From contig CAVPLU010000007.1 in assembly GCA_963706285.1 (NCBI GenBank), positions 1-28,058 on the forward strand: a stretch of DNA of 28,058 nucleotides, given 5' to 3'. The notes beneath the pieces are model-generated. The model was not told where the DNA came from. It worked only from the letters and a program-made list of their open reading frames with translations, and made no database searches. This document shows, piece after piece, positions 8,611 through 27,459 of this stretch (positions are counted from its first letter, which is position 1; every line of letters begins with the position of its first letter). A program made the position numbers and the translations under genes. Source of the DNA: Candidatus Bathyarchaeota archaeon (GTDB taxonomy: Archaea; Thermoproteota; Bathyarchaeia; 40CM-2-53-6).

Positions 8611-10020
8611 TCACACAGTGTTGGACTCAGCTTCTTTCAAAAGCACTGAGATTTTCTGCTGCGCGTCTCTGCCGAGTTGTGTCACCGGTCGATGCTCAGC
8701 AAGAATTTTCCTTACCGCATGTTTTGCCTGTTCCCTAATGTCTTTGTGTCCGGAAGCTTCCCAAGCAGATCTGGTTTTCTTATCGAACAGTCTATGCTGG
8801 TAGAATTCCTTCAGATAGAATTTCCTGGTGTGGGGGCGTCCGAGGTAATTACCTCCAGGGCCGACGCTTGCAATCTCGTTAAGTGCAAGCCTCTCTTCAT
8901 CAAAGTCTATTCCTCTCAGCACCCTTTGGATCATGCCATAGACTTCATTGTCGATGACAAGTTGCTCCAAACTGAATGTGTTGATGGCTTCTGCAGATCC
9001 CGCCCCAGAATCCAATCTCGCTCCAGCCAAAGCGGGTAGCAAGCTCACAAAGACTCTCTCAACTCCGGCCTGCTCGTCTATGGTTTTCGAGTCTGAGCGA
9101 AGCCCGAAGCCTTCGCCGGGGAGACCGTAGAATTGCGCTACCTGAACGCACGCTGCGGATAGCAATCCGATTTCGACCACGCCGCTCAATGGAGTTGCAT
9201 ATCTCTGGTCGAGTGGTGAGGATTTGTTGCCAATGATCACAGGCGTTCCGGGGTTAACGATTTGCATCAAAGTAATAGTTGCCAAGCATTCGGCGCTCTG
9301 CTGAACCAATGTGCCAGCCAGCGTAACAGGTGACGCTACGCCAACGACGACTCCGGAGACAATTATGGCCGGGATGTTCTTTTCGGCACAGAAGATTGTC
9401 ACGGGATCCCTCAAGGTCAGCGGACTTATCGGGCATACGAGCGAGCTGAAGATTGGAGATCGTGAGTCTGACTCCTCCTCAAATACTGTAGCTAAACGCT
9501 TCTGGAAATCTAAAGTCGTTCTGCTCAAAGGCGTGGTAACCACGTGCTTCTCACAGTTGTCCAAGGCCAGCTTGAACGAGTGAACGTCCCTCACGTGCGG
9601 TGGCGTGTCCGAAGGAAAGATGTGGGTCGCGTTGATCGAGACGTTGTCTAGATCCTGTATGAGCTTAGATGCATCAGCCGTGTCTTTCGATAATCCATGC
9701 CTTGAGAGGCCGGTTTCAAGATCGATCACTTCGGTGAGCCCAGTCGAGGCGCGAGTGTACATCCGGCCCGGTTCAAGCTTGACCGCATACTTCTTGTTTC
9801 TTGCTCCAAGAGTCACCTCGCGGGGCGCTTTCTTCACAGCCTCTTCGACCAAAGAGGGAGGGATTTTTACGGTCTGATTCTTGTCGTCAACCGTCGCCCC
9901 TTGATCATGGAAAATCTGAAGTGTGCTCCTGTCAACGACCCTGACTCCCACTTTTTCGAGAATGCCGAGTGCTGACGAGTGCAATGTCTCCAACTGATCA
10001 CGGCTCAATAGTTGCCACAT
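8611..10020 (-). CDS. Trimethylamine:corrinoid methyltransferase (MttB/MtgB) family protein, non-pyrrolysine
   Basis: LH..AL.ILEKVGV, CPISPL, SPVTLAGTLVQQSAE, PGTPVI, YGLP...SDSKTIDEQAG, FSLEQLVIDNE, VGPGGNYL...HT motifs. No in-frame TAG. Confidence 0.92.
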   Translation of the reverse strand: MWQLLSRDQLETLHSSALGILEKVGVRVVDRSTLQIFHDQGATVDDKNQTVKIPPSLVEEAVKKAPREVTLGARNKKYAVKLEPGRMYTRASTGLTEVIDLETGLSRHGLSKDTADASKLIQDLDNVSINATHIFPSDTPPHVRDVHSFKLALDNCEKHVVTTPLSRTTLDFQKRLATVFEEESDSRSPIFSSLVCPISPLTLRDPVTIFCAEKNIPAIIVSGVVVGVASPVTLAGTLVQQSAECLATITLMQIVNPGTPVIIGNKSSPLDQRYATPLSGVVEIGLLSAACVQVAQFYGLPGEGFGLRSDSKTIDEQAGVERVFVSLLPALAGARLDSGAGSAEAINTFSLEQLVIDNEVYGMIQRVLRGIDFDEERLALNEIASVGPGGNYLGRPHTRKFYLKEFYQHRLFDKKTRSAWEASGHKDIREQAKHAVRKILAEHRPVTQLGRDAQQKISVLLKEAESNTV

Positions 10021-13123: not shown

Positions 13124-14062
13124 ATGCTTCGAACTATGATTGAGATCAGACGATTCGAAGAGCGCGTGGAACGGCTATTCTTGCAGGAAGGACTGCTGAT
13201 CGGCCCATCCCACCTATACTTGGGCCAAGAAGCTGTTGCAGCCGGCGCGATAGGTGCACTCAGGGATGATGATCTCATTGTGAGCACATACCGAGGTCAC
13301 GGCCACGCCATCGCAAGAGGAGTGCCAATGAACCCGCTGATGTCGGAGCTGTTTGGAAAGGCTACTGGCACCTGTAAAGGTCTCGGAGGATCGATGCACG
13401 CCCCCATATTTCCTGAGAAAGGCATATTGTATGCCAGCGCAATTGTGGGCAGTGGAGTGCCGATCACGTCAGGAGTCGGACTCGCTCTGAAACTGGCGGG
13501 CAAGCATCAAGTTGCCATGACTTTCTTCGGTGACGGAGCCACCAACACAGGCGCCTTTCATGAGGGGATCAATCTCGCGGCCGTCTGGAAACTTCCAGTG
13601 GTCTTTGTCTGTGAGAACAACCTCTACGCTATGTCAACTCGAGCGGACAAGGCGATAGCGGCTGAGAGTGTCGCAGATCGCGCTAAGGCATATGGAATTC
13701 ACGCGATTGCTGCAGATGGCAACGACGTAGTTGCAGTGGTTCTGTCGGCTGAAGAGGCGATTGAGAACGCACGAAAAGGAGAAGGTCCGACTCTCATTGA
13801 ATGCATCACGTACAAAATGAAGGGTCATGGAATCTACGACAAGGCCGAGTACAGACCGAAAGAGGAAGTTGAGGAGTGGCGGAGACGCGACCCGATCGAG
13901 ACCTTTGAGGCCAAGCTTCTCAAGATGAAACTTGCAGCGCAGACCGATATCGATCGAATCGAGAAGGAAGTCGCCATTTTAGTCGAGGAATCTGTTGCAT
14001 TCGCAAAGTCAAGCCCGGTACTACCATTCGAGGAACTCGGGGACTTCGTGTATGCTAGGTGA
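13124..14062 (+). CDS. TPP-dependent 2-oxoacid/acetoin dehydrogenase E1 alpha subunit (PdhA/AcoA-like)
   Basis: HLYLGQEA, TYRGHGH, GGSMH and the TPP motif GDGATN...ENN. The frame is open upstream to 13046, so the true start may be earlier. Confidence 0.93.
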   Translation: MLRTMIEIRRFEERVERLFLQEGLLIGPSHLYLGQEAVAAGAIGALRDDDLIVSTYRGHGHAIARGVPMNPLMSELFGKATGTCKGLGGSMHAPIFPEKGILYASAIVGSGVPITSGVGLALKLAGKHQVAMTFFGDGATNTGAFHEGINLAAVWKLPVVFVCENNLYAMSTRADKAIAAESVADRAKAYGIHAIAADGNDVVAVVLSAEEAIENARKGEGPTLIECITYKMKGHGIYDKAEYRPKEEVEEWRRRDPIETFEAKLLKMKLAAQTDIDRIEKEVAILVEESVAFAKSSPVLPFEELGDFVYAR

Positions 14063-15042
14063 ATGGAATGCGTGAGTGTACGTATGCCGATGCCTTGCGA
14101 GAGGCCCTGCGTGAAGAGATGCTCAGGGATTCGCACGTAATCCTCTTGGGTGAGGAGATAGGGGTCTTCGAAGGTGTCTACAAAGTTACGCGCGGTTTGC
14201 TGAAGGAGTTTGGTCCTGAAAGAGTAAGGGACACTCCAATCTCCGAGGCTGCAATCGCAGGCGCCGCAGTGGGTGCGGCATTGGCTGGCTTCAAGCCTGT
14301 AGCAGAGATTATGTACATGGACTTTCTCACGATATGTCTCGATCAGATAGCAACAAACGCTGCAAAGATGCGGTTCATGAGCGGCGGGAAGCTGAAGGTT
14401 CCGTTCGTCCTCCGAACACAATACAGCCTTGGACGAATGCACGGTGCTCAGCATTCCCAGTTCTATCCATCAATATTCTTCCAAGTACCGGGTCTGAAGG
14501 TTGTCCTGCCCTCGACACCACACGACGCCAAAGGCCTTCTGAAAGCTTCGATTCGAGAGAACAATCCCGTCATATTTATCGAAAGCGGCGCACTATACAG
14601 AACGAAAGGGCCAGTTCCGGAAGAGGAATATCTGTTGCCTCTCGGCCAGTGCGATATCAAAAGAAACGGCGATGACCTCACCATAGTCGCGGTCTCAAGA
14701 GTTGTCAGTGAAGCTCTTGCCGCAGCCGCTAAGCTGGAAGAGCAAGGCATCACGACGGAAGTGATAGATCCGAGAACTATCCAACCGCTCGATTCAAACA
14801 CAATAGTTGAGTCTGTCAGGAAGACTGGAAGACTGATTATCGCGTCGGATGACGTAAGATCAGGCGGAATCGGCTCCGAGATAGCGGCAATCGTGGTCGA
14901 AGAAGCTTTTGACTCGCTAGACTCACCGATTCTGCGTGTGGCATCCGCCGACATGCCGATACCATTCTCTCCGCCACTCGAGCAAGCGTACATGCCAAAC
15001 GCACAGAAGATCATCGAAGCAGCGAAGAAACTGATCGGGTGA
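14059..15042 (+). CDS. 2-oxoacid/acetoin dehydrogenase E1 beta subunit (PdhB/AcoB-like)
   Basis: GEEIG, RVRDTPISE, AEIMYMDF, AQHSQ, DPRTIQPLD, SVRKTGR. GTGA overlap with E1a; alternative ATG at 14068. Confidence 0.95.
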   Translation: MNGMRECTYADALREALREEMLRDSHVILLGEEIGVFEGVYKVTRGLLKEFGPERVRDTPISEAAIAGAAVGAALAGFKPVAEIMYMDFLTICLDQIATNAAKMRFMSGGKLKVPFVLRTQYSLGRMHGAQHSQFYPSIFFQVPGLKVVLPSTPHDAKGLLKASIRENNPVIFIESGALYRTKGPVPEEEYLLPLGQCDIKRNGDDLTIVAVSRVVSEALAAAAKLEEQGITTEVIDPRTIQPLDSNTIVESVRKTGRLIIASDDVRSGGIGSEIAAIVVEEAFDSLDSPILRVASADMPIPFSPPLEQAYMPNAQKIIEAAKKLIG

Positions 15043-16235
15043 AAGCGATGTTCAAGGTGACAATGCCTCGTCTAGATCCCGGTATGCAGTCGGGCAAGAT
15101 CGTAGAGTGGCTGAAGAAAGAAGGAGATCACGTCGAAAAGGACGTTCCTATTGTTCAGATAGAAGGAGAGAAGACCACTTTTGAAGTGAACGCCCCGGGA
15201 GCAGGCATCGTCCGGAAACTACTGTTTGGGCCTGGTATGGATGTTCAGGTTGGACAGACTATCGCGCTTGTGGGCGAGCAAGACGAGCCGTTACCGACCG
15301 GCGCCCAAGCACCAATGGCAAGCGAGCCTGTTGTAGTGCACGAACCGACTGCGGCTCCTCCAATTTTACGAGTGACAGAACCATCAGCTTCACCGGTAGC
15401 GAGGAAGATGGCCAGAGAGGCGGGCATCGACATATCGAAGATCAGGGGCTCTGGACCTGGCGGCAGAATAGTCCGTGAAGATGTTCAGAAAGCAATCGAA
15501 CAGATTAGCATACCGCCGGAAGCGGGCGCTGTCATGGTTCAAGAAACTAGGGCTGTCCCAGTTGCCAGGACGATCAAACTATCGGGAAAACGGAGGGCGA
15601 TATCGGAGCGTCTTTCATACGGTTTCCACACAACGGTTCCTGTTACGATCACGATGGAGGCGCGAATGGAGGCAGTTCTTGAGCAAAGGAGGAGCCTTCA
15701 CGGTCGGACAGGTGAGGAGGTATCCATCACCGCTTACATTGTGAAGGCAGCAGCGAGAGCTCTCGAGGATCACGAGATGATCAACTCATCCCTTGAGGAA
15801 GACGAGTTGCGAGTCTACGCTGACATCAACGTGGCCGTGGCAATCAACACGCCCGACGGACTTGTCGCGCCGGTGATACCGCAAACAAACAAGATGTCTG
15901 TACTTGAGATTTCACAGGGAATTCGGGATCTGACTGACCGTGCCCTGCAGAACCGGCTCACAGTAAGAGATCTCACAGGTGGTACATTTACGGTGACGAA
16001 TCTGGGCGGTTATGGTGTCGACCTTTTCGCGCCAATAATCAATCCTCCACAGTGTGCAATCATTGGTTTCGGCCGAACGTCCGAGAAACCCATAATTGTC
16101 GAGAACCAAGTGCGAGTGGCGTCGATCACGACACTATCACTAGTCTTCGATCACAGGATAGTTGATGGTGTACCTGCGGCGCAGTTTCTGCAACGAGTCA
16201 AAGAACTACTGGAGGACCCGAAGAAGCTTGATTGA
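15039..16235 (+). CDS. Dihydrolipoamide acyltransferase E2 (one lipoyl domain, subunit-binding domain, catalytic domain)
   Basis: Lipoyl domain with EGEKT lysine, ASPVARKMA...GSGPGGRI subunit-binding domain, GGTFTVTNLG, PIINPPQ, DHRIVDG. Confidence 0.95.
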   Translation: MKAMFKVTMPRLDPGMQSGKIVEWLKKEGDHVEKDVPIVQIEGEKTTFEVNAPGAGIVRKLLFGPGMDVQVGQTIALVGEQDEPLPTGAQAPMASEPVVVHEPTAAPPILRVTEPSASPVARKMAREAGIDISKIRGSGPGGRIVREDVQKAIEQISIPPEAGAVMVQETRAVPVARTIKLSGKRRAISERLSYGFHTTVPVTITMEARMEAVLEQRRSLHGRTGEEVSITAYIVKAAARALEDHEMINSSLEEDELRVYADINVAVAINTPDGLVAPVIPQTNKMSVLEISQGIRDLTDRALQNRLTVRDLTGGTFTVTNLGGYGVDLFAPIINPPQCAIIGFGRTSEKPIIVENQVRVASITTLSLVFDHRIVDGVPAAQFLQRVKELLEDPKKLD

Positions 16236-16252
16236 TCTCGGTCGCGCCGTCG

Positions 16253-17284
16253 CTATGGCGTGATCGCCACTTTGATCGCTGTGCCTTTCTGCATCAGACG
16301 TAGCGCTTCTTCGACCTCGGTGAGTCTCATTCTATGAGTGACGAGCTGGGCAACGTTAACCTGCGCTGTCGATATCAGCCTTAGGGCCTCACGCACATCT
16401 GTTGGCGTGTGATGGAACACTCCTCTCAACGTGAGTTCTCCGTAGTGCATCAGGCCCGTGTCAATCGAAGCTTTGCTTCCCGCTGGACATCCACCAAACA
16501 GAACTGTTGTTCCGCCTTTCCTCGTGGCTTGCACAGCCAGTTCCCACGTCTCGGGTTTTCCAACCGCTTCAATGGTGACATCTGCTCCACGGTTCTCACT
16601 CAGCGCCTTCAATTTGGTGATTGAATTACTGGGAGCGACTAACTGGTCTGCTCCGAATTGAGCTGCCATCTGTAACCTCTCAGTGATCGCGTCTGTGACG
16701 ACAACGGTCCTTGCCCCATGGATCTTCGCGAGCTGAATGTGCATCAGTCCGATCGGTCCAGCGCCAATAACGAAGACGAGATCGCCTGCTCGGATGCCGG
16801 ATAACTCGATTCCATGAACCACACACGCCAGCGGCTCCACAAAGGCAGCGGTCTCGAACGGTACATTTTCCGGTATTGCATGCGTGTTTTGCCTGACGAT
16901 TCGTGCTGGTAACCGCACGTATTCGGCATACGCACCAGGAGAAGAGAATCCAACAAGCACTTCATCTAGATGATCGCATAAGTTGGGTTTGCCGATCCGG
17001 CAGTAGTGGCATGACATGCATGGCGCTGAATTAGCCGCGACAACTCTCATGCCCTTTTCAAATCCTTGGGCACCTTCGCCTACTCTTTCAACTGTGCCAG
17101 CGAATTCATGCCCAATAATAAGTGGAGGATTTGCGAGTCTGTGACCGCGAAGATACATCTTCAGATCCGTACCGCAAGTGAGCGCCACATGATTACGAAT
17201 GAGCAGCTCTCCCCTCGATATCTCTGGGATATCGACCTCTTCGACTCGCAGCACTCCGGGGGCATAGAAACGCGCGGCCAGCAA
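16253..17284 (-). CDS. Zn-dependent medium-chain dehydrogenase (L-iditol/threonine dehydrogenase-like)
   Basis: CGTD, GHE, structural Zn motif CxxCxxCx7C, EPLAC, GAGPIG. Confidence 0.92.
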   Translation of the reverse strand: MLAARFYAPGVLRVEEVDIPEISRGELLIRNHVALTCGTDLKMYLRGHRLANPPLIIGHEFAGTVERVGEGAQGFEKGMRVVAANSAPCMSCHYCRIGKPNLCDHLDEVLVGFSSPGAYAEYVRLPARIVRQNTHAIPENVPFETAAFVEPLACVVHGIELSGIRAGDLVFVIGAGPIGLMHIQLAKIHGARTVVVTDAITERLQMAAQFGADQLVAPSNSITKLKALSENRGADVTIEAVGKPETWELAVQATRKGGTTVLFGGCPAGSKASIDTGLMHYGELTLRGVFHHTPTDVREALRLISTAQVNVAQLVTHRMRLTEVEEALRLMQKGTAIKVAITP

Positions 17285-17304
17285 CTAATGTTCACGTCCC
17301 ATGT

Positions 17305-18330
17305 CTACTCGTGAACCATGACCTTGAGAGATGACAGTGCATCATCTGCAGCTCGGAAGGCATTAACAACGTCGCCCAGACCAAAGCGGTGTGTTATCAT
17401 GTTCGTCAATCGAATAACCTTCTTGTCCATCATCTCCAAAGCCCTTTCGATCTCTTTGTCTGTGGTTGAATAACTTGGCATCAGCTTGATCTCGCGTATG
17501 AACACGTTGCTTGCGTCGAACTCAAGCATGCTTCCTTGTGCAGGAATACCGAAGAGGAGAATCTTGCCGCCTTTCCTTACTAGTGAAAACGCAGACTCTA
17601 TTGCCTTCAGGTTTCCTGATGCGACTATTACATTGTCCGCTCCGATATCTCCGGTTGCGTCGAGAACGTGACTGCGCAAGTTTTTGTCGGATGCATTGAG
17701 TGTCTCGTCTGCTCCGAACTTCTTTGCCCATTCTAGTCTGGGCTTGATGATGTCCATAACGATTATGGAGCGGGCACCGGACGCTCGAAGAAGCTGGATG
17801 TACGTTAGTCCTGCGGGTCCAGCTCCGATTATCAGAAAGCTGTCTCCCTCTGCAATACCTAGCCTGTCGAGTCCTCTTATGCAGCATCCTGTCGGTTCCG
17901 CGAAAGCAACTTCTTCGTAACTCATTTCGTGAGGTACTCTGAACACAGCTCCTTTGGTAACGTTCTCTTGGGGAACCCTGAAGTACTCCGCGAACCCGCA
18001 AGGGTCTATATTGCTTCTAGGAAACTCCTCACAGAGGGTCTGGTCGCCGTGAAGACAATAGTAGCAGGTCTGGCAAGGTACGTGATGGTGCACAACTATT
18101 CGATCGCCGCACGAGTAGTTCTCCACGCCCTCTCCCACCTCTTCGATTTCTCCAGCCACCTCGTGTCCTAAAATTGGGGGAGTCACCCTTACCCCACGGA
18201 GTTTCTCTAAGTCTGTTCCACATATACCGCACACTTTCATTTTGACGAGAAGCTCTCCGTGACCGATCCGTGGCCTCTCAACATTACGAAGCCCAAGCTT
18301 TCCCTGAGAATCAACGAAAGTAGCCTTCAA
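17305..18330 (-). CDS. Zn-dependent medium-chain dehydrogenase (L-iditol 2-dehydrogenase-like)
   Basis: CGICGTD, GHEVAG, HHHVPCQTCYYC...C, EPTGC, GAGPAG. Confidence 0.92.
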   Translation of the reverse strand: MKATFVDSQGKLGLRNVERPRIGHGELLVKMKVCGICGTDLEKLRGVRVTPPILGHEVAGEIEEVGEGVENYSCGDRIVVHHHVPCQTCYYCLHGDQTLCEEFPRSNIDPCGFAEYFRVPQENVTKGAVFRVPHEMSYEEVAFAEPTGCCIRGLDRLGIAEGDSFLIIGAGPAGLTYIQLLRASGARSIIVMDIIKPRLEWAKKFGADETLNASDKNLRSHVLDATGDIGADNVIVASGNLKAIESAFSLVRKGGKILLFGIPAQGSMLEFDASNVFIREIKLMPSYSTTDKEIERALEMMDKKVIRLTNMITHRFGLGDVVNAFRAADDALSSLKVMVHE

Positions 18331-18685: not shown

Positions 18686-19162
18686 CTACTCGATGATCAC
18701 TAGTACTTGGCCCATCCCAACCGGCTCGCGTTCTCTAGCGTTGATCTGCTTGATCACGCCCGACTTGTTAGCACGGAGCTCGTTCTGCATCTTCATTGCT
18801 TCAAGAATGAGAACAACTTCGCCGGCTTCGACCCGATCGCCTTCCTTCTTCAACACTCTGACAACCACGCCTGGCATGATAGCTGTAATGTCATCCTCCT
18901 CAGCACGAGTCGAGATCGCGACTCCTTTGCGAGTTCCACTTGGCTTTTGTTCTGCCAGCCCTATGACCTCGAATGGGTGAGTGATACCGTCCACTGTAGC
19001 TGTGCCGCCGCTGAGCTCAACTTTATGGGCATTGCCTTGAACAATGACTGTGTTGTCTTTGATCGCGAAGGAGAATTCTTGTCCATCAACCAGCAGCAGG
19101 TTGTCTCGGCGTTCAATTTCGTACGACACGGTATCTAGTACTAGTCTGAACCTGTCTGCCAT
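18686..19162 (-). CDS. Biotin carboxyl carrier protein (transcarboxylase 1.3S/AccB-like)
   Basis: C-terminal biotinyl domain AIMPG...LEAMKMQNE. Likely start is ATG 19162 (MADRFRL), overlapping the end of the upstream gene. Confidence 0.93.
   Translation of the reverse strand: MADRFRLVLDTVSYEIERRDNLLLVDGQEFSFAIKDNTVIVQGNAHKVELSGGTATVDGITHPFEVIGLAEQKPSGTRKGVAISTRAEEDDITAIMPGVVVRVLKKEGDRVEAGEVVLILEAMKMQNELRANKSGVIKQINAREREPVGMGQVLVIIE
18956..19147 (-). repeat. Four tandem degenerate 16-aa beta-hairpin-like repeats in the BCCP N-terminus
   Basis: RLVLDTVSYEIERRDN / LLLVDGQEFSFAIKDN / TVIVQGNAHKVELSGG / TATVDGITHPFEVIGL. Exact 16-residue period, visible at protein level only. Confidence 0.65.
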
Positions 19163-20679
19163 CGTTGCCACCCGTTCGCTAGGCCGGGCCGGTTGGCCAT
19201 CTTCCATGGTGCAACTTGCCCAACGCGTCGTGTAGTCGCCCCGCTCTCGGTTTCGGAGTTTTGTTCAAGCAATAATGCTGCGACAGCTGCGGCTAGCTCC
19301 CTATCGCCAACTAATCCTCTAGCGCGTCGTTCCAATAACTGACGGCCGGCTTCCGGGAATAGTGCGTAGCAGAGGATGTCTTCTTCGGACTTTGCCAGGT
19401 CACCGACATCTTCTCTCGCCTTTTCCCATCCCGGCGGCAGCATATCGAGCCGGCAAGTGATCGGCTGTTCATCCCCAATCGCCTTGCGTTGAAGCTCAGG
19501 ATTGACCGGCGCCGGGGGCTTCCCATAGTACCCACGGATGTACTCCTTTACTTCTTCAAGGATCATTTTGTAGCGTTCTCCCAACAGCACATTCAGTGTC
19601 GCCTGTGTTCCAACGATCTGGCTGGACGGCGTGACCAACGGCGGAAAGCCCAGATCCTCTCGAACTCGCGGCACCTCTTTCAGCACGTCATAGTAGCGAT
19701 CCATTGCATCCTGTTGACGCAACTGGCTGATCAGATTAGAGAGCATACCGCCGGGCAATTGGAACTGCAACACGTTAACGTCAACACTGTTGGTGCCAGC
19801 CTCGAAGCTGGCATATTTCTTACGTATTTCGCCCACCTCGCGTGCAATCTCAGCCAAGGCAGCAATGTCCAAGCCTGTGTCGCGCTCAGTATCCTTTAGC
19901 GCAACCACAAGCGTCTCAGTAGGTGGTTGAGAGCTGGAAAGCGCCATTGATGAGATGGACGTGTCCACAACATCCACACCGGCCTCCACAGCCTTCAGCA
20001 GTGTCGCTGTTCCCATGCCGCTTGTGCAATGTGTATGCAGCTGCACTGGGAGGCACACCTCTTTCTTCAGTACAGATACCAGTGCATAAGCCGCGTAAGG
20101 CGACAACAACCCGGCCATGTCTTTTATGCAGATAGAATCTGCACCCAGACGGGCCAGTTCATGCCCCATTCTCGCGAAAAGAGGGATGTCGTGTACCGGG
20201 CTGATTGTGTAGCAGATGGATGCCTGCACGTGTCCGCCTTCACGCTTCGCGATCCTCATTGCAAATTGCATGTTACGAATATCATTTAGCGCGTCGAAGA
20301 TCCTAAACACATCTATGCCATTGCGTTTCGCCGCCACGATGAAGTGCTCAACAACGTCATCCGGGTAATGCTTGTAGCCCAACAAATTCTGACCACGCAA
20401 GAGCATCTGAAGGCGGGTGTTAGGCATCTCGCGTCTGAGTACGCGGAGGCGTTCCCACGGGTCTTCACCTAGAAATCGCATCGCGCTATCGAATGTGGCA
20501 CCCCCCCACATTTCTACGGACCAGTAACCGATCTTGTCAAGTTTGGCAGCGATCGGCAGCATGTCGGCAGTGCGCAAACGCGTGGCGAGTAGCGATTGAT
20601 GTGCATCACGCAGGACAGTTTCGCAGATCTTCACAGGATTCTTAGCGATTTCTGACACCCTCGGCTTCTTCACACGCAA
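19141..20679 (-). CDS. Pyruvate/oxaloacetate carboxyltransferase (transcarboxylase 5S / OadA / PycB family) without a biotinyl domain
   Basis: LRDAHQSLLATR, MWGGATFD, QMLLRGQN, IKDMAG, HTH metal ligands, PGGMLSNL, PPLVTPSSQIVG. No AMKM motif. Confidence 0.93.
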   Translation of the reverse strand: MRVKKPRVSEIAKNPVKICETVLRDAHQSLLATRLRTADMLPIAAKLDKIGYWSVEMWGGATFDSAMRFLGEDPWERLRVLRREMPNTRLQMLLRGQNLLGYKHYPDDVVEHFIVAAKRNGIDVFRIFDALNDIRNMQFAMRIAKREGGHVQASICYTISPVHDIPLFARMGHELARLGADSICIKDMAGLLSPYAAYALVSVLKKEVCLPVQLHTHCTSGMGTATLLKAVEAGVDVVDTSISSMALSSSQPPTETLVVALKDTERDTGLDIAALAEIAREVGEIRKKYASFEAGTNSVDVNVLQFQLPGGMLSNLISQLRQQDAMDRYYDVLKEVPRVREDLGFPPLVTPSSQIVGTQATLNVLLGERYKMILEEVKEYIRGYYGKPPAPVNPELQRKAIGDEQPITCRLDMLPPGWEKAREDVGDLAKSEEDILCYALFPEAGRQLLERRARGLVGDRELAAAVAALLLEQNSETESGATTRRVGQVAPWKMANRPGLANGWQRWQTGSD

Positions 20680-20682
20680 GCA

Positions 20683-22233
20683 TCACAATGGAATATTGCC
20701 GTGTTTCTTGGGCGGGTTGCTATCCCTCTTGTTCTGCAGCATGCGAAGGGCCTCGATCAAATGCGGCCGGGTCTCTCGCGGTTCGATCACGTCGTCCAAG
20801 TAGCCGTGTGCAGCAGCAACATATGGATTCGCGAATTTCTCACGATATATCTGTACGAGTTCACTGCGTTTTGCGACCGGGTCGTCGGCTTCAGCGATTT
20901 CTTTGCGGAAAATTATGTTAACTGCGCCATCTGGTCCCATCACTGCGATTTCGGAGCTGGGCCAAGCTACGTTGTAGTCGCCGCGTATGTGCTTGCTGCT
21001 CATGACATCGTACGCGCCGCCGTAGGCTTTCCTCGTGATTATTGTCAGCTTGGCCACAGTAGCCTCGCAATAAGCGTACAGTAGTTTCGCTCCGTGGACG
21101 ATAATGGCGCCATGTTCTTGGTCAACGCCAGGCAGGAAGCCGGGCACATCTACAAACGTTACGATCGGAATGTTGAATGCGTCGCAAAAGCGCACGAAAC
21201 GTGCGCCCTTGATTGACGACTTAATGTCGAGCACGCCGGCCGAGACGGCGGGTTGATTTGCGACTATTCCTATGCTATGTCCACCCAAACGTCCAAAGCC
21301 AACTACGATATTTGGCGCAAAACTCTTGTGAATTTCGAAGAATTCTCCGTTGTCAACGATCATGCGAATGATTTCTTTCATGTCATACGGCTTGCTGGGA
21401 TCATCTGGGACGATCGTGTCGAGTCGCTCATCCATCCGTTGTGGATCGTCGTCGGTCTCGACGTACGGCGGGTCTTCCACGTTGTTCGAGGGCAGGTAGC
21501 TAATCAGTTGGCGAATGAGCGACAAAGCTTCCGTCTCGTTATCTGCCGCCATATGGCATACGCCGCTCTTTGCACTGTGCGCCAGCGCTCCGCCCAGCTC
21601 CTCAAATGTTACTTTCTCACGCGTCACGGTTTCTACCACATCCGGCCCGGTAATGAACATATGGCTTGAGTCTTTTACCATGAAAATGAAATCCGTCAGC
21701 GCAGGGCTGTACACTGCACCACCTGCACACGGGCCCATGATGGCACTGATTTGCGGTATTAGACCAGATGCCAGAGTGTTACGCAAGAAGATCTCTGCGT
21801 AGCCTCCTAAGCTGACCACACCCTCTTGGATTCGCGCCCCTCCAGAATCGTTCAGCCCGACTATCGGCGCGCCATTCTTCATCGCAAGGTCCATCACCTT
21901 GCAAATCTTCTCGGCATGAGCTTCTCCAAGACTGCCTCCGAAGACGGTAAAGTCTTGGCTGAATACGTATACACGCCGTCCATTAATCATGCCCCAGCCC
22001 GTCACCACGCCATCAGACAGCACTTTTTTTTCATCCATTCCAAAGTCCGTGGCACGATGTACGACAAACATGTCCAGTTCGTGAAAAGATGCTTTGTCCA
22101 ACAGTGCCTCGATGCGCTCGCGAGCAGTCATCTTGCCTTTGGAACGCTGCGCCTCTACCCGGTTGGCACCGCCGGCCTCTCGAGCCTGCTTTCTCAGTCG
22201 GTGCAATTGCTCAGTTTTGTGATTAGTCGGCAT
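20683..22233 (-). CDS. Acyl-CoA carboxyltransferase (PccB/MmdA/transcarboxylase 12S family)
   Basis: [58 protein letters not shown] and C-terminal KKHGNIPL. Start is ATG 22233 or GTG 22254. Confidence 0.95.
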
Positions 22234-22534
22234 GCAGGTCCATATTCCCTGCACTCCTAATAAGAGGTGTTTCGTTGTGACGCTATCATTGAATCAAACC
22301 CACATCTATAGCCGTAGCATACTGGGCGAGAATCAACGCAATGCGATTGTGCAGATTCTATGGTGTCGAGCTTGTCGCGATAGATCATCCAAGCAAGAGG
22401 AACAAATCTACAAGGAGATCTGGCTGAGCGCGAATCGGATAGAAAGCCGTCTTGTGTTAGTTCTCGAAGCCTCTCGCCTATTTCCAATATGGTCCACATT
22501 TCTTCTCAGTGTGACCCTGTCGAAAAAGATACGC

Positions 22535-23338
22535 CTATGTGCGACTTCTGATTTCCCGGACCGAGACGTCCCCTGATAGAAGCCTTCGAATTGTGCCGTC
22601 TTGGGCTTGGATGACTAGAGCACCATCAGAGTCCAAGTCTACAACTTCCGCTCTGTAAGATATCTTCTTTTCCTGGACAATAATCGACATTTTCAACATG
22701 TCGGAAAGTCGTTTCCACTCCGCGATTACGTGTGAGGAATCGCAGGCAAGTATTTTTGCATAAATCGCCGAGAAGTCATTGAGGATCTCTCGCATCAACC
22801 AGTCGACATTCACGTTCGACTTCAACTCATCTAAGATAGATGTTGCTTCACTCGCCAGCTCGACTGTCATCGAGCCAACGGAGTTGTTTACATTAATCCC
22901 AAAACCCATGATCGCATGGCAGTTGCTGCCTTCTGTTGTTGTTTCGGCAAGTACTCCGGCAACCTTTCTTTCATTAATGGTTACATCGTTGGGCCACTTC
23001 AGCATGGCTCGGATACGAAAAAGGCGTCGGATCGTTGTCGCGACAGCAACTCCGGCAGCTAGCGGAAGAATTGAGATGGTTGACATCGTCACCTCTGGCC
23101 GAAGGATAAGAGAGAACCATAATCCCCCTACAGGAGAAAACCATGTTTTGTTTCCTCTTCCTCTTCCGTGCTTCTGCGTAGCTGCGAGGACTACCGTCCC
23201 CTCAGGGGTGCCTTGCTCAGCAAGCTTCTTTGCAACATCATTTGTCGAGCTCACACTATCAAATCGAATGATGATTTCGCCTAGGTGCGGGTCATGTTTG
23301 ACAGAACCATCTCTTCTTGTAGGCGACTGCTGCTTCAT
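22535..23338 (-). CDS. birA: Biotin-[acetyl-CoA-carboxylase] ligase, group I (no N-terminal HTH)
   Basis: SSTND, QKHGRGR, WFSPVGGLWFS, KWPND, KVAGVL, GINVN, DGALV, SGDVS. Confidence 0.95.
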   Translation of the reverse strand: MKQQSPTRRDGSVKHDPHLGEIIIRFDSVSSTNDVAKKLAEQGTPEGTVVLAATQKHGRGRGNKTWFSPVGGLWFSLILRPEVTMSTISILPLAAGVAVATTIRRLFRIRAMLKWPNDVTINERKVAGVLAETTTEGSNCHAIMGFGINVNNSVGSMTVELASEATSILDELKSNVNVDWLMREILNDFSAIYAKILACDSSHVIAEWKRLSDMLKMSIIVQEKKISYRAEVVDLDSDGALVIQAQDGTIRRLLSGDVSVREIRSRT

Positions 23339-26934: not shown

Positions 26935-27258
26935 TCGGTTGTCAGATTCCGAGTGCAACGAAGTGGCGATTTTGGCTTACATCCTCGCGTGAACTCATTC
27001 AGCGGGGTAGCCTCCGCCCACTAGATTCCTAGTTACTGGACCTTGCATCCTAACCGGAATCTCACCCCATTGTGCTCGTTGGTTCCTCTGGGAAGATCCG
27101 TTCAATTGAGCTTCTCTTCTCCGCGTATTTGATGAATATGCCCAATGACACTCATTCCAGGCGCTCGTTCGTGGAGCCCAAGGCTTTGTGAATATTGCAG
27201 TTGTAAGCTGGAAGACGTATGCCTTCCCGACGGCAATATGCCTTTGCTGATGGTGAAA

Positions 27259-27459
27259 ATGGTTTCCCTAAATCCGTTCAGACGCAAAATTGAACTCGCG
27301 AGTCAACCAATTCACAGTGATGTCAGTCGATGTACATGTAAACGATGCAATTGCCCTCATCCGGCAGGGCAACGTCATTCAACCAAGAAAGATGCCTTGG
27401 GTTACGAACAGGTGTTTTGCGCCGACTGTAACGATATCTGTCTAACTCACCCGATGTAG
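27259..27459 (+). CDS. Small (66 aa) Cys/His-rich putative zinc-binding protein
   Basis: GGTGA just upstream of ATG 27259; CxCxxCxCxH ... CxxCxxxCxxH motifs. A longer frame from 27145 also exists. Confidence 0.5.
   Translation: MVSLNPFRRKIELASQPIHSDVSRCTCKRCNCPHPAGQRHSTKKDALGYEQVFCADCNDICLTHPM

Follow-up and report, generated by a model that had tools for sequence, protein, structure and literature searches.

A predicted ATP-independent methylmalonyl-CoA:pyruvate transcarboxylase operon, with its own biotin ligase, in a bathyarchaeal genome

We analysed a stretch of 28,058 nucleotides (nt), hereafter the window, which is the entire contig C7 of an assembly labelled Candidatus Bathyarchaeota archaeon (GCA_963706285.1; G000 below). 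Four genes of biotin-dependent carboxyl transfer lie together on its minus strand (Table 1): a biotin-protein ligase (BirA), a carboxyltransferase resembling the 12S subunit of transcarboxylase, a second carboxyltransferase resembling the 5S subunit, and a stand-alone biotin carboxyl carrier protein (BCCP). Coordinates, Pfam and NCBIfam agree with the original prediction, made from the sequence alone, that the 12S-like, 5S-like and carrier genes are co-oriented and abut or overlap, with birA upstream. The gap from the 12S stop to the 5S start is 3 bases, and the carrier frame shares 67 nt with the 5S frame (22 nt if BCCP begins at its second ATG); the true start of the 12S-like frame may be the ATG at residue 8. 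The operon probably encodes a three-subunit, ATP-independent methylmalonyl-CoA:pyruvate transcarboxylase (EC 2.1.3.1) and a biotin ligase of its own.

Table 1. Genes of the cluster, the Na+-pump (Mmd) locus of congeners and frame-broken places in the assembly. Positions are those of the window unless a genome or contig is named.
Feature	Position	Strand	Evidence or content
Biotin-protein ligase BirA	22535-23338	-	Pfam BPL_LplA_LipB 7.7e-24 and BPL_C; TIGR00121 175 bits, cut-off 83
Spacer between BirA and 12S-like gene, 280 nt	22255-22534	-	contains an open reading frame (ORF) of 80 amino acids (aa), 22257-22499
12S-like acyl-CoA (methylmalonyl-/propionyl-CoA) carboxyltransferase, 523 aa	20683-22254	-	PF01039 Carboxyl_trans 672.7 bits, model positions 2-493 of 493
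5S-like pyruvate/oxaloacetate carboxyltransferase, 512 aa	19141-20679	-	HMGL-like and PYC_OADA; no fused biotin or ATP-grasp domain (Pfam)
Stand-alone biotin carboxyl carrier (BCCP), 173 aa	18686-19207	-	Biotin_lipoyl PF00364 1.8e-17; motif EAMKM
Mmd locus	G111:C14:6198-12992 (L089); G164:C42 (L090); corresponding site G000:C4:27000-33600 (L115)		
Frame-broken places in G000	C12 46359-49757 and 130309-131407; C6 4534-6800; C4 28263-31014		

Among solved structures in the PDB, the best matches of the 12S-like protein are beta chains of propionyl-CoA carboxylase (PCC) and MmdA-like chains, with PCC beta 3n6r (714 bits) ahead of the transcarboxylase 12S subunit 1on3 (585 bits); against the NCBIfam mmdA model TIGR01117 it scores 837 bits, under the cut-off of 998.8. 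For the 5S-like protein the top NCBIfam model is PycB (NF006761; 738.6 bits, model positions 3-451 of 591), and the matches to oadA (687 bits, cut-off 756.5) and to transcarboxylase 5S (NF008984; 561.5 bits, cut-off 827) both fall below their cut-offs. The PDB gives the same order, with PycB 5ks8 at 539 bits, OadA 2nx9 at 532 bits and transcarboxylase 5S 1rqb at 476 bits. By eye, we estimate from the alignments that about 60% of its residues match those of pyruvate/oxaloacetate enzymes. The 5S-like motifs LRDAHQS, KDMAG and HTHCTSG (RD..Q, KDMAG and HxH) align with these three solved chains, and we take the stretches to be the sites of the metal ligands and the carbamylated lysine.

The biotinyl domain of the carrier occupies residues 107-172, after an N-terminal part of about 100 aa that matches the linker region of PycB/OadA. 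Residues 52-173 match positions 467-590 of the 591 in the PycB model, and the 1.3S subunit of transcarboxylase (PDB 1dcz) is matched at 1.2e-12. Because the 5S-like protein and the carrier together span the PycB model almost end to end, we regard them as a PycB/OadA-type alpha chain split in two genes. A frameshift artefact of a fused gene is ruled out, since the two-gene arrangement recurs in six related loci: a separate, overlapping carrier gene is kept in L009, L091 and L092, and a separate carrier gene is also found in L011, L014 and L016.

BirA is of the catalytic type without an N-terminal helix-turn-helix domain, and is predicted to biotinylate the single biotin carrier of the genome. 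Nine congeners hold no close orthologue of it; the nearest they have is the ligase encoded at the Mmd locus described below (39%). The spacer 5' of the 12S-like gene is likely its promoter region. The 80-aa ORF within the spacer was considered as a small epsilon-like subunit and rejected: it has no Pfam or NCBIfam family and no tblastn homologue in 96 related loci, and its two strain copies, on contigs C6 and C7, differ by 11 substitutions in 243 nt, like intergenic DNA. We therefore judge it to be non-coding.

The original prediction also held that neither a biotin carboxylase nor a membrane pump subunit (OadB/MmdB) occurs in or next to the cluster. This holds for the window and for C6, the larger contig copy, and extends to the whole 89.2%-complete assembly, which was searched by tblastn and by six-frame hidden Markov model (HMM) searches that tolerate frame breaks. 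Biotin_carb_C (PF02785) gave 0 matches in the six frames of G000, the same family being found in 13 of 14 known genomes used as a control, and tblastn with the biotin carboxylase of another Bathyarchaeia genome returned only CarB, at 24% identity. CPSase_L_D2 (PF02786) matched both halves of CarB and two weak places, on C4 and C8. Neither of the two is a hidden biotin carboxylase, since NCBIfam identifies them as the succinyl-CoA ligase beta chain (SucC) and PurD. OAD_beta (PF03977) likewise gave 0 matches in G000, and tblastn with the MmdB of a congener found none. Apart from the carrier and a match on C16 (35% over 63 aa, E 6e-4), tblastn found no biotin protein in G000.

These searches bear on each enzyme class that shares the subunits. 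A two-subunit pyruvate carboxylase would combine PycA, which was not found in G000, with a PycB-like chain, which here is split in two genes; the membrane OAD_beta of an Na+-translocating oxaloacetate or methylmalonyl-CoA decarboxylase, and the biotin carboxylase (alpha) partner that the carboxyltransferase beta chain of a propionyl- or acetyl-CoA carboxylase has, were equally not found there. With neither an ATP-grasp partner nor a pump found, transcarboxylation is the only known chemistry left for a carrier placed between both carboxyltransferases. The ATP-independent (methyl)malonyl-CoA/pyruvate shuttle originally proposed is supported at the level of the genome.

By analogy with the families concerned, BirA would attach biotin to the carrier at the EAMKM lysine; the 12S-like subunit would reversibly convert (S)-methylmalonyl-CoA and biotin to propionyl-CoA and carboxybiotin; and the 5S-like subunit would, again reversibly, convert carboxybiotin and pyruvate to biotin and oxaloacetate. 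The N-terminal part of the carrier, a split-off PycB/OadA-type linker, probably tethers it to the 5S-like subunit. The sequence itself shows what the genes are, that catalytic motifs are kept and that the searches yielded no partner, whereas the substrates and the direction are matters that we infer. The transcarboxylase reaction lies near equilibrium, and its direction is therefore set by the pathway in which it stands.

As had been looked for, G000 encodes both methylmalonyl-CoA mutase, in two copies of which one is intact and the other frame-broken, alongside MeaB and a B12-binding subunit, and the epimerase (143.7 bits, cut-off 115). SucC and SucD (succinyl-CoA synthetase), a frame-broken GTP-dependent phosphoenolpyruvate carboxykinase (PEPCK) and an ADP-forming acyl-CoA synthetase-like gene were also found; an archaeal phosphoenolpyruvate carboxylase and PrpD were not found in G000. 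The pathway partners of G000 are scattered over C4, C6 and C12. In a Hermodarchaeota relative from the same clade, the cluster is found among genes for BirA, an epimerase, a B12 subunit and, twice, the mutase. In the congener G111, succinyl-CoA synthetase lies 2 kb upstream of the cluster. A block of C6 that lies 8-24 kb beyond the cluster copy (C6:50000-66000; L112) holds SdhABCD, citrate synthase, isocitrate dehydrogenase and aconitase, together with cytochrome b, heme-copper oxidase subunits I-IV and heme O synthase. Its gene content points to a capacity for aerobic respiration, in a genome that bears the label Bathyarchaeota. Immediately downstream of the operon, at 13124-18330, the window carries a pyruvate dehydrogenase (PDH)-like E1alpha/E1beta/E2 set and two threonine-dehydrogenase-like Zn alcohol dehydrogenases; it contains no E3.

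Since the genome looks respiratory, the PrpD/methylcitrate route was not found and a PDH-like complex stands beside the operon, we lean slightly towards the direction in which propionyl-CoA and oxaloacetate give methylmalonyl-CoA and pyruvate, Wood-Werkman propionate formation being the almost equally probable alternative. The favoured direction would provide an ATP-free entry of propionyl-CoA into the tricarboxylic acid (TCA) cycle, as in syntrophic propionate oxidisers. Propionate formation is possible, especially in those congeners that have an Na+ pump. Conversely, a net anaplerotic role, which the original prediction had offered beside propionate oxidation and formation, is unlikely, because the donor methylmalonyl-CoA comes from succinyl-CoA and one C4 acid would be spent for each oxaloacetate gained.

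The host of the cluster is an archaeon, a soil-type member of the Bathyarchaeia. G000 comprises 2.13 Mb in 21 contigs (89.2% complete, 7.47% contaminated), carries an archaeal 16S gene on C4 (1468 bits) and has a G+C content of 50-52% in all contigs. The window duplicates C6:19255-47319 at 96.3% identity. It probably represents a strain variant that was co-assembled, and this likely adds to the contamination figure. Just upstream, C6 carries archaeal-type genes: RadA, a second Rad51-family gene, a family-B DNA polymerase, Fae-Hps and myo-inositol-1-phosphate synthase. A 346-kb contig titled Candidatus Bathyarchaeota archaeon carries the closest public relative of the 5S-like gene (82%). On the strength of the 16S gene, the C6 copy beside archaeal-type genes and this relative, we assign the cluster to an archaeon, as the original prediction had supposed; the idea of a contaminant contig was rejected on the first two grounds. 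Single frame breaks split many genes of the assembly, among them the second mutase copy, PEPCK, DNA polymerase B and a P-type ATPase (Table 1). They are common assembly-wide and look like indel errors, so lone broken frames should not be taken as pseudogenes.

Elsewhere in the window, an MttB-family methyltransferase is encoded at 8611-10020 on the minus strand (TIGR02369 420 bits, cut-off 525); as it has no in-frame stop, we consider it a non-pyrrolysine homologue. A corrinoid-type B12-binding protein is encoded upstream on C6 (G000:C6:10472-11125).

To place the cluster among its relatives, we drew on a related-locus search in which 599 of 600 candidate stretches were confirmed and the best 80 kept; with 16 regions from class-mates these make up the 96 loci, on each of which six genes were mapped. 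A quick IQ-TREE phylogeny of the 5S-like protein, with SH-aLRT support only, comprises 93 rows (L027 and L035 were removed by a length or single-frame filter, and L012 has a very long branch). In this tree the window groups with L009, G111 and G164 of its genus (support 99), sister to two Acidobacteriota (100). Genus and Acidobacteriota lie within a 12-row group that otherwise consists of five Chloroflexota rows and one 'uncultured bacterium' row (96). A clade of 19 rows (95) unites this group with two Hermodarchaeota and with five rows from Thorarchaeota or unnamed archaea. Throughout the nearest clade the order 12S-5S-carrier is maintained; the flanks of the 19 rows show a 12S gene and a long carrier, no OadB, and a biotin carboxylase in one row only (L017). 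The 12S tree, of 32 rows, is congruent with the 5S tree; fragments, split genes and carboxyltransferases below 40% identity (e.g. L011, L017 and L049) were left out of it, and both trees were built without the Propionibacterium chains.

Other Bathyarchaeia 5S-like genes have 48-55% identity and fall in two distant clades. For the 12S rows, monophyly of the cluster-type Bathyarchaeia is rejected by an approximately unbiased test (p = 0.0003), a test weakened by the group having been named after the tree was seen. Since the two trees agree in placing the genus beside Acidobacteriota, within a Chloroflexota group and far from the other Bathyarchaeia copies, the simplest reading of the phylogenies is that the 12S-5S-carrier module passed as a whole between bacteria and the genus. 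Patchy presence (2 of 22 family-mates sampled, 2 of 6 genus-mates) suggests a direction into the archaeon. The genus probably acquired the module from bacteria, in line with the horizontal acquisition that the original prediction had thought possible. The flanks of the cluster differ among all four genus genomes (the window, L009, L091 and L092), and BirA adjoins it in G000 only. A mobile-element origin of these variable flanks is unsupported, no tRNA and no integrase or transposase family having been seen in the window.

A survey of 201 genomes of the class, G000 included, found the 5S-like gene in 19 of them: six also have a biotin carboxylase, nine have OAD_beta and four have neither. These four are G000, G072, G118 and G184, the last three 97-100% complete; the Asgard genomes of the nearest clade also lack both biotin carboxylase and OadB (7 of 7). 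In Bathyarchaeia of family f13 (L093, L102 and L104) the 12S-5S pair is joined to OadB and two carriers, and in G077 and G008 (L094 and L095; families f31 and f16) to a biotin carboxylase, a second carrier and BirA. From its gene neighbourhoods, the 12S-5S module appears to be combined with differing third partners among Bathyarchaeia.

In the two congeners G111 and G164, OAD_beta lies at a locus separate from the cluster (the Mmd locus; Table 1), with a second biotin ligase, MmdA, MmdB, a 126-aa carrier, an Na/Ca exchanger and BioY. Since this locus has its own carboxyltransferase, carrier and ligase, the 12S-5S-carrier set is best regarded as a separate enzyme. Both flanks of the Mmd locus are present on C4 of G000 (33474-34046 and 27043-27339), about 6.1 kb apart; what the interval encodes instead is a GDT1 protein, a P-type ATPase with a broken frame, and proteins of thiolase-like and DUF35-like type. 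Because flanks and interval are assembled, with other genes between, the locus is absent at its expected site and not lost in an assembly gap. A BioY homologue is kept in G000. In G201, the genome of L009, only a 69-aa OAD_beta/MmdB remnant is left. No biotin carboxylase was found in G111 (95% complete), G164 (88% complete) or G201.

Several observations weigh against a transcarboxylase. The cluster stands at 81-82% identity in G111 and G164 beside a genome-encoded Na+ pump, and other Bathyarchaeia pair 12S-5S with biotin carboxylase or OadB; with partners so varied, the module alone is not diagnostic of transcarboxylase. The assembly, moreover, is incomplete and partly contaminated, so a partner gene could lie in the missing part. 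The full-text literature searched, with subscription journals outside its scope, holds no characterised archaeal transcarboxylase. On the first two of these grounds the genes might instead be parts of ATP-dependent propionyl-CoA or pyruvate carboxylases, or of Na+-pumping decarboxylases, whose partner lies in the unassembled ~11% of the genome. We consider this quite improbable: the Mmd site is assembled and occupied by other genes, the congeners' pump locus is self-sufficient in carboxyltransferase, carrier and ligase, none of the four genus genomes with the cluster yielded a biotin carboxylase, and searches that tolerate frame breaks found no partner in G000.

Every equivalog HMM score under its cut-off, and subunits for which PycB/OadA and PCC beta are closer than the 5S and 12S chains of Propionibacterium, also count against the proposed identity. 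The low equivalog scores would suit a transcarboxylase acting on another substrate pair, one whose 12S side uses acetyl-CoA/malonyl-CoA, for instance, or whose 5S side accepts a different 2-oxo acid, the more so as the 12S-like protein is nearest to carboxylase beta chains and some archaeal carboxylase beta chains are promiscuous. Such a pair is unlikely, given that the best 12S matches are propionyl-CoA-specific beta chains and MmdA, that mutase, epimerase and MeaB are present in G000, mutase and epimerase adjoining the cluster in the Hermodarchaeota relative, and that the 5S-like protein retains the site motifs and, by eye, the ~60% of matching residues shared with pyruvate/oxaloacetate enzymes. 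The C6 copy of the 5S gene has two 1-nt deletions, a further point against function, and with the Mmd locus gone from G000 and reduced to a remnant in G201 the cluster could be a decaying, functionless leftover of the loss of the pump. This we regard as very improbable, because all four frames are intact in the window, the catalytic motifs are kept, the strain copies differ at just 3 of 1539 positions in the 5S gene and 2 of 522 in the carrier, as opposed to 11 of 243 in the non-coding ORF, a dedicated BirA and a BioY homologue are retained, and frame breaks are frequent across the whole assembly.

It is tempting to go one step beyond the predicted transcarboxylase and speculate, tentatively and with more doubt than conviction, that a respiratory Bathyarchaeia lineage, with heme-copper oxidase and a full TCA cycle, has lost its Na+-pumping methylmalonyl-CoA decarboxylase and keeps a bacterially derived transcarboxylase as its sole biotin enzyme. 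Oxaloacetate, as carboxyl donor, would then bring propionyl-CoA into the TCA cycle at zero ATP, an aerobic use of the Wood-Werkman enzyme that replaces propionyl-CoA carboxylase. More broadly, the 12S-5S-carrier set of Bathyarchaeia may be a plug-in core that is combined with biotin carboxylase, with an Na+ pump or with nothing.

The operon is probably a horizontally acquired addition to a known enzyme type and not a new kind of system; as the enzyme kind is known and its prediction in archaea is not new, the advance is incremental. The original prediction knew of no characterised archaeal example, and the literature searched bears it out, but the novelty was overrated: the Asgard trio had already been read in this way in a study discussed below, and the cluster occurs in other Bathyarchaeia. 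Within the same literature we found no report of a transcarboxylase in Bathyarchaeia, the only archaeal genomic prediction being that for Asgard. A compact four-gene operon, in a genome in which no competing biotin carboxylase or pump was detected, nevertheless makes a clean candidate for expression and assay, and for the first biochemical test of an archaeal transcarboxylase. Transcarboxylase activity would lend support to the Asgard propionate-metabolism proposal; it would show how an archaeon handles propionyl-CoA without ATP cost, and would document the transfer of an entire multi-subunit enzyme from bacteria to archaea.

Of the known systems, the transcarboxylase of Propionibacterium freudenreichii (12S, 5S and 1.3S; 1on3, 1rqb and 1dcz) is alike in combining an acyl-CoA carboxyltransferase, a pyruvate carboxyltransferase free of a biotin domain and a separate small carrier, with no biotin carboxylase or pump subunit and with the same conserved 5S site motifs. 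Its chains are homologues of the operon's and not their nearest relatives, as the bit scores above attest; the carrier of the operon is longer, with a PycB/OadA-like linker, and the host is an archaeon with respiratory genes. PycB (5ks8) and OadA (2nx9), the best sequence matches of the 5S-like subunit, differ in that the chain is split in two genes in the operon and that their partners PycA and OadB were not found in G000. The MmdABC system of the congeners G111 and G164 likewise combines a carboxyltransferase of the same family (59% identity to the 12S-like protein) with a biotin carrier and a biotin ligase; it differs in its OAD_beta membrane subunit, its shorter carrier and its location at another locus, one that is absent from G000.

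In Asgard archaea, according to Imachi et al. 2020 (PMC7015854), propionate metabolism is scored by methylmalonyl-CoA decarboxylase, a biotin carrier and pyruvate carboxylase, and the trio is read there as a methylmalonyl-CoA transcarboxylase serving propionate fermentation in anaerobes. The resemblance to the window extends to the annotation as methylmalonyl-CoA decarboxylase alpha, biotin carrier and pyruvate carboxylase B with a biotin ligase, and the Thor- and Hermodarchaeota copies share the 19-row 5S clade with the window copy. They differ from it in having 55-61% identity on the 5S-like subunit, the window copy branching with Acidobacteriota and Chloroflexota instead. Syntrophic propionate-oxidising bacteria, as covered in a review (PMC8892533), have an mmc-type transcarboxylase annotated as MMD alpha and gamma with transcarboxylase 5S, a set that runs from propionyl-CoA to succinate with epimerase, mutase, succinyl-CoA synthetase and succinate dehydrogenase. 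Those hosts are bacterial anaerobes whose pathway genes are clustered in Firmicutes, whereas the corresponding genes of G000 are dispersed over three contigs of an archaeal genome.

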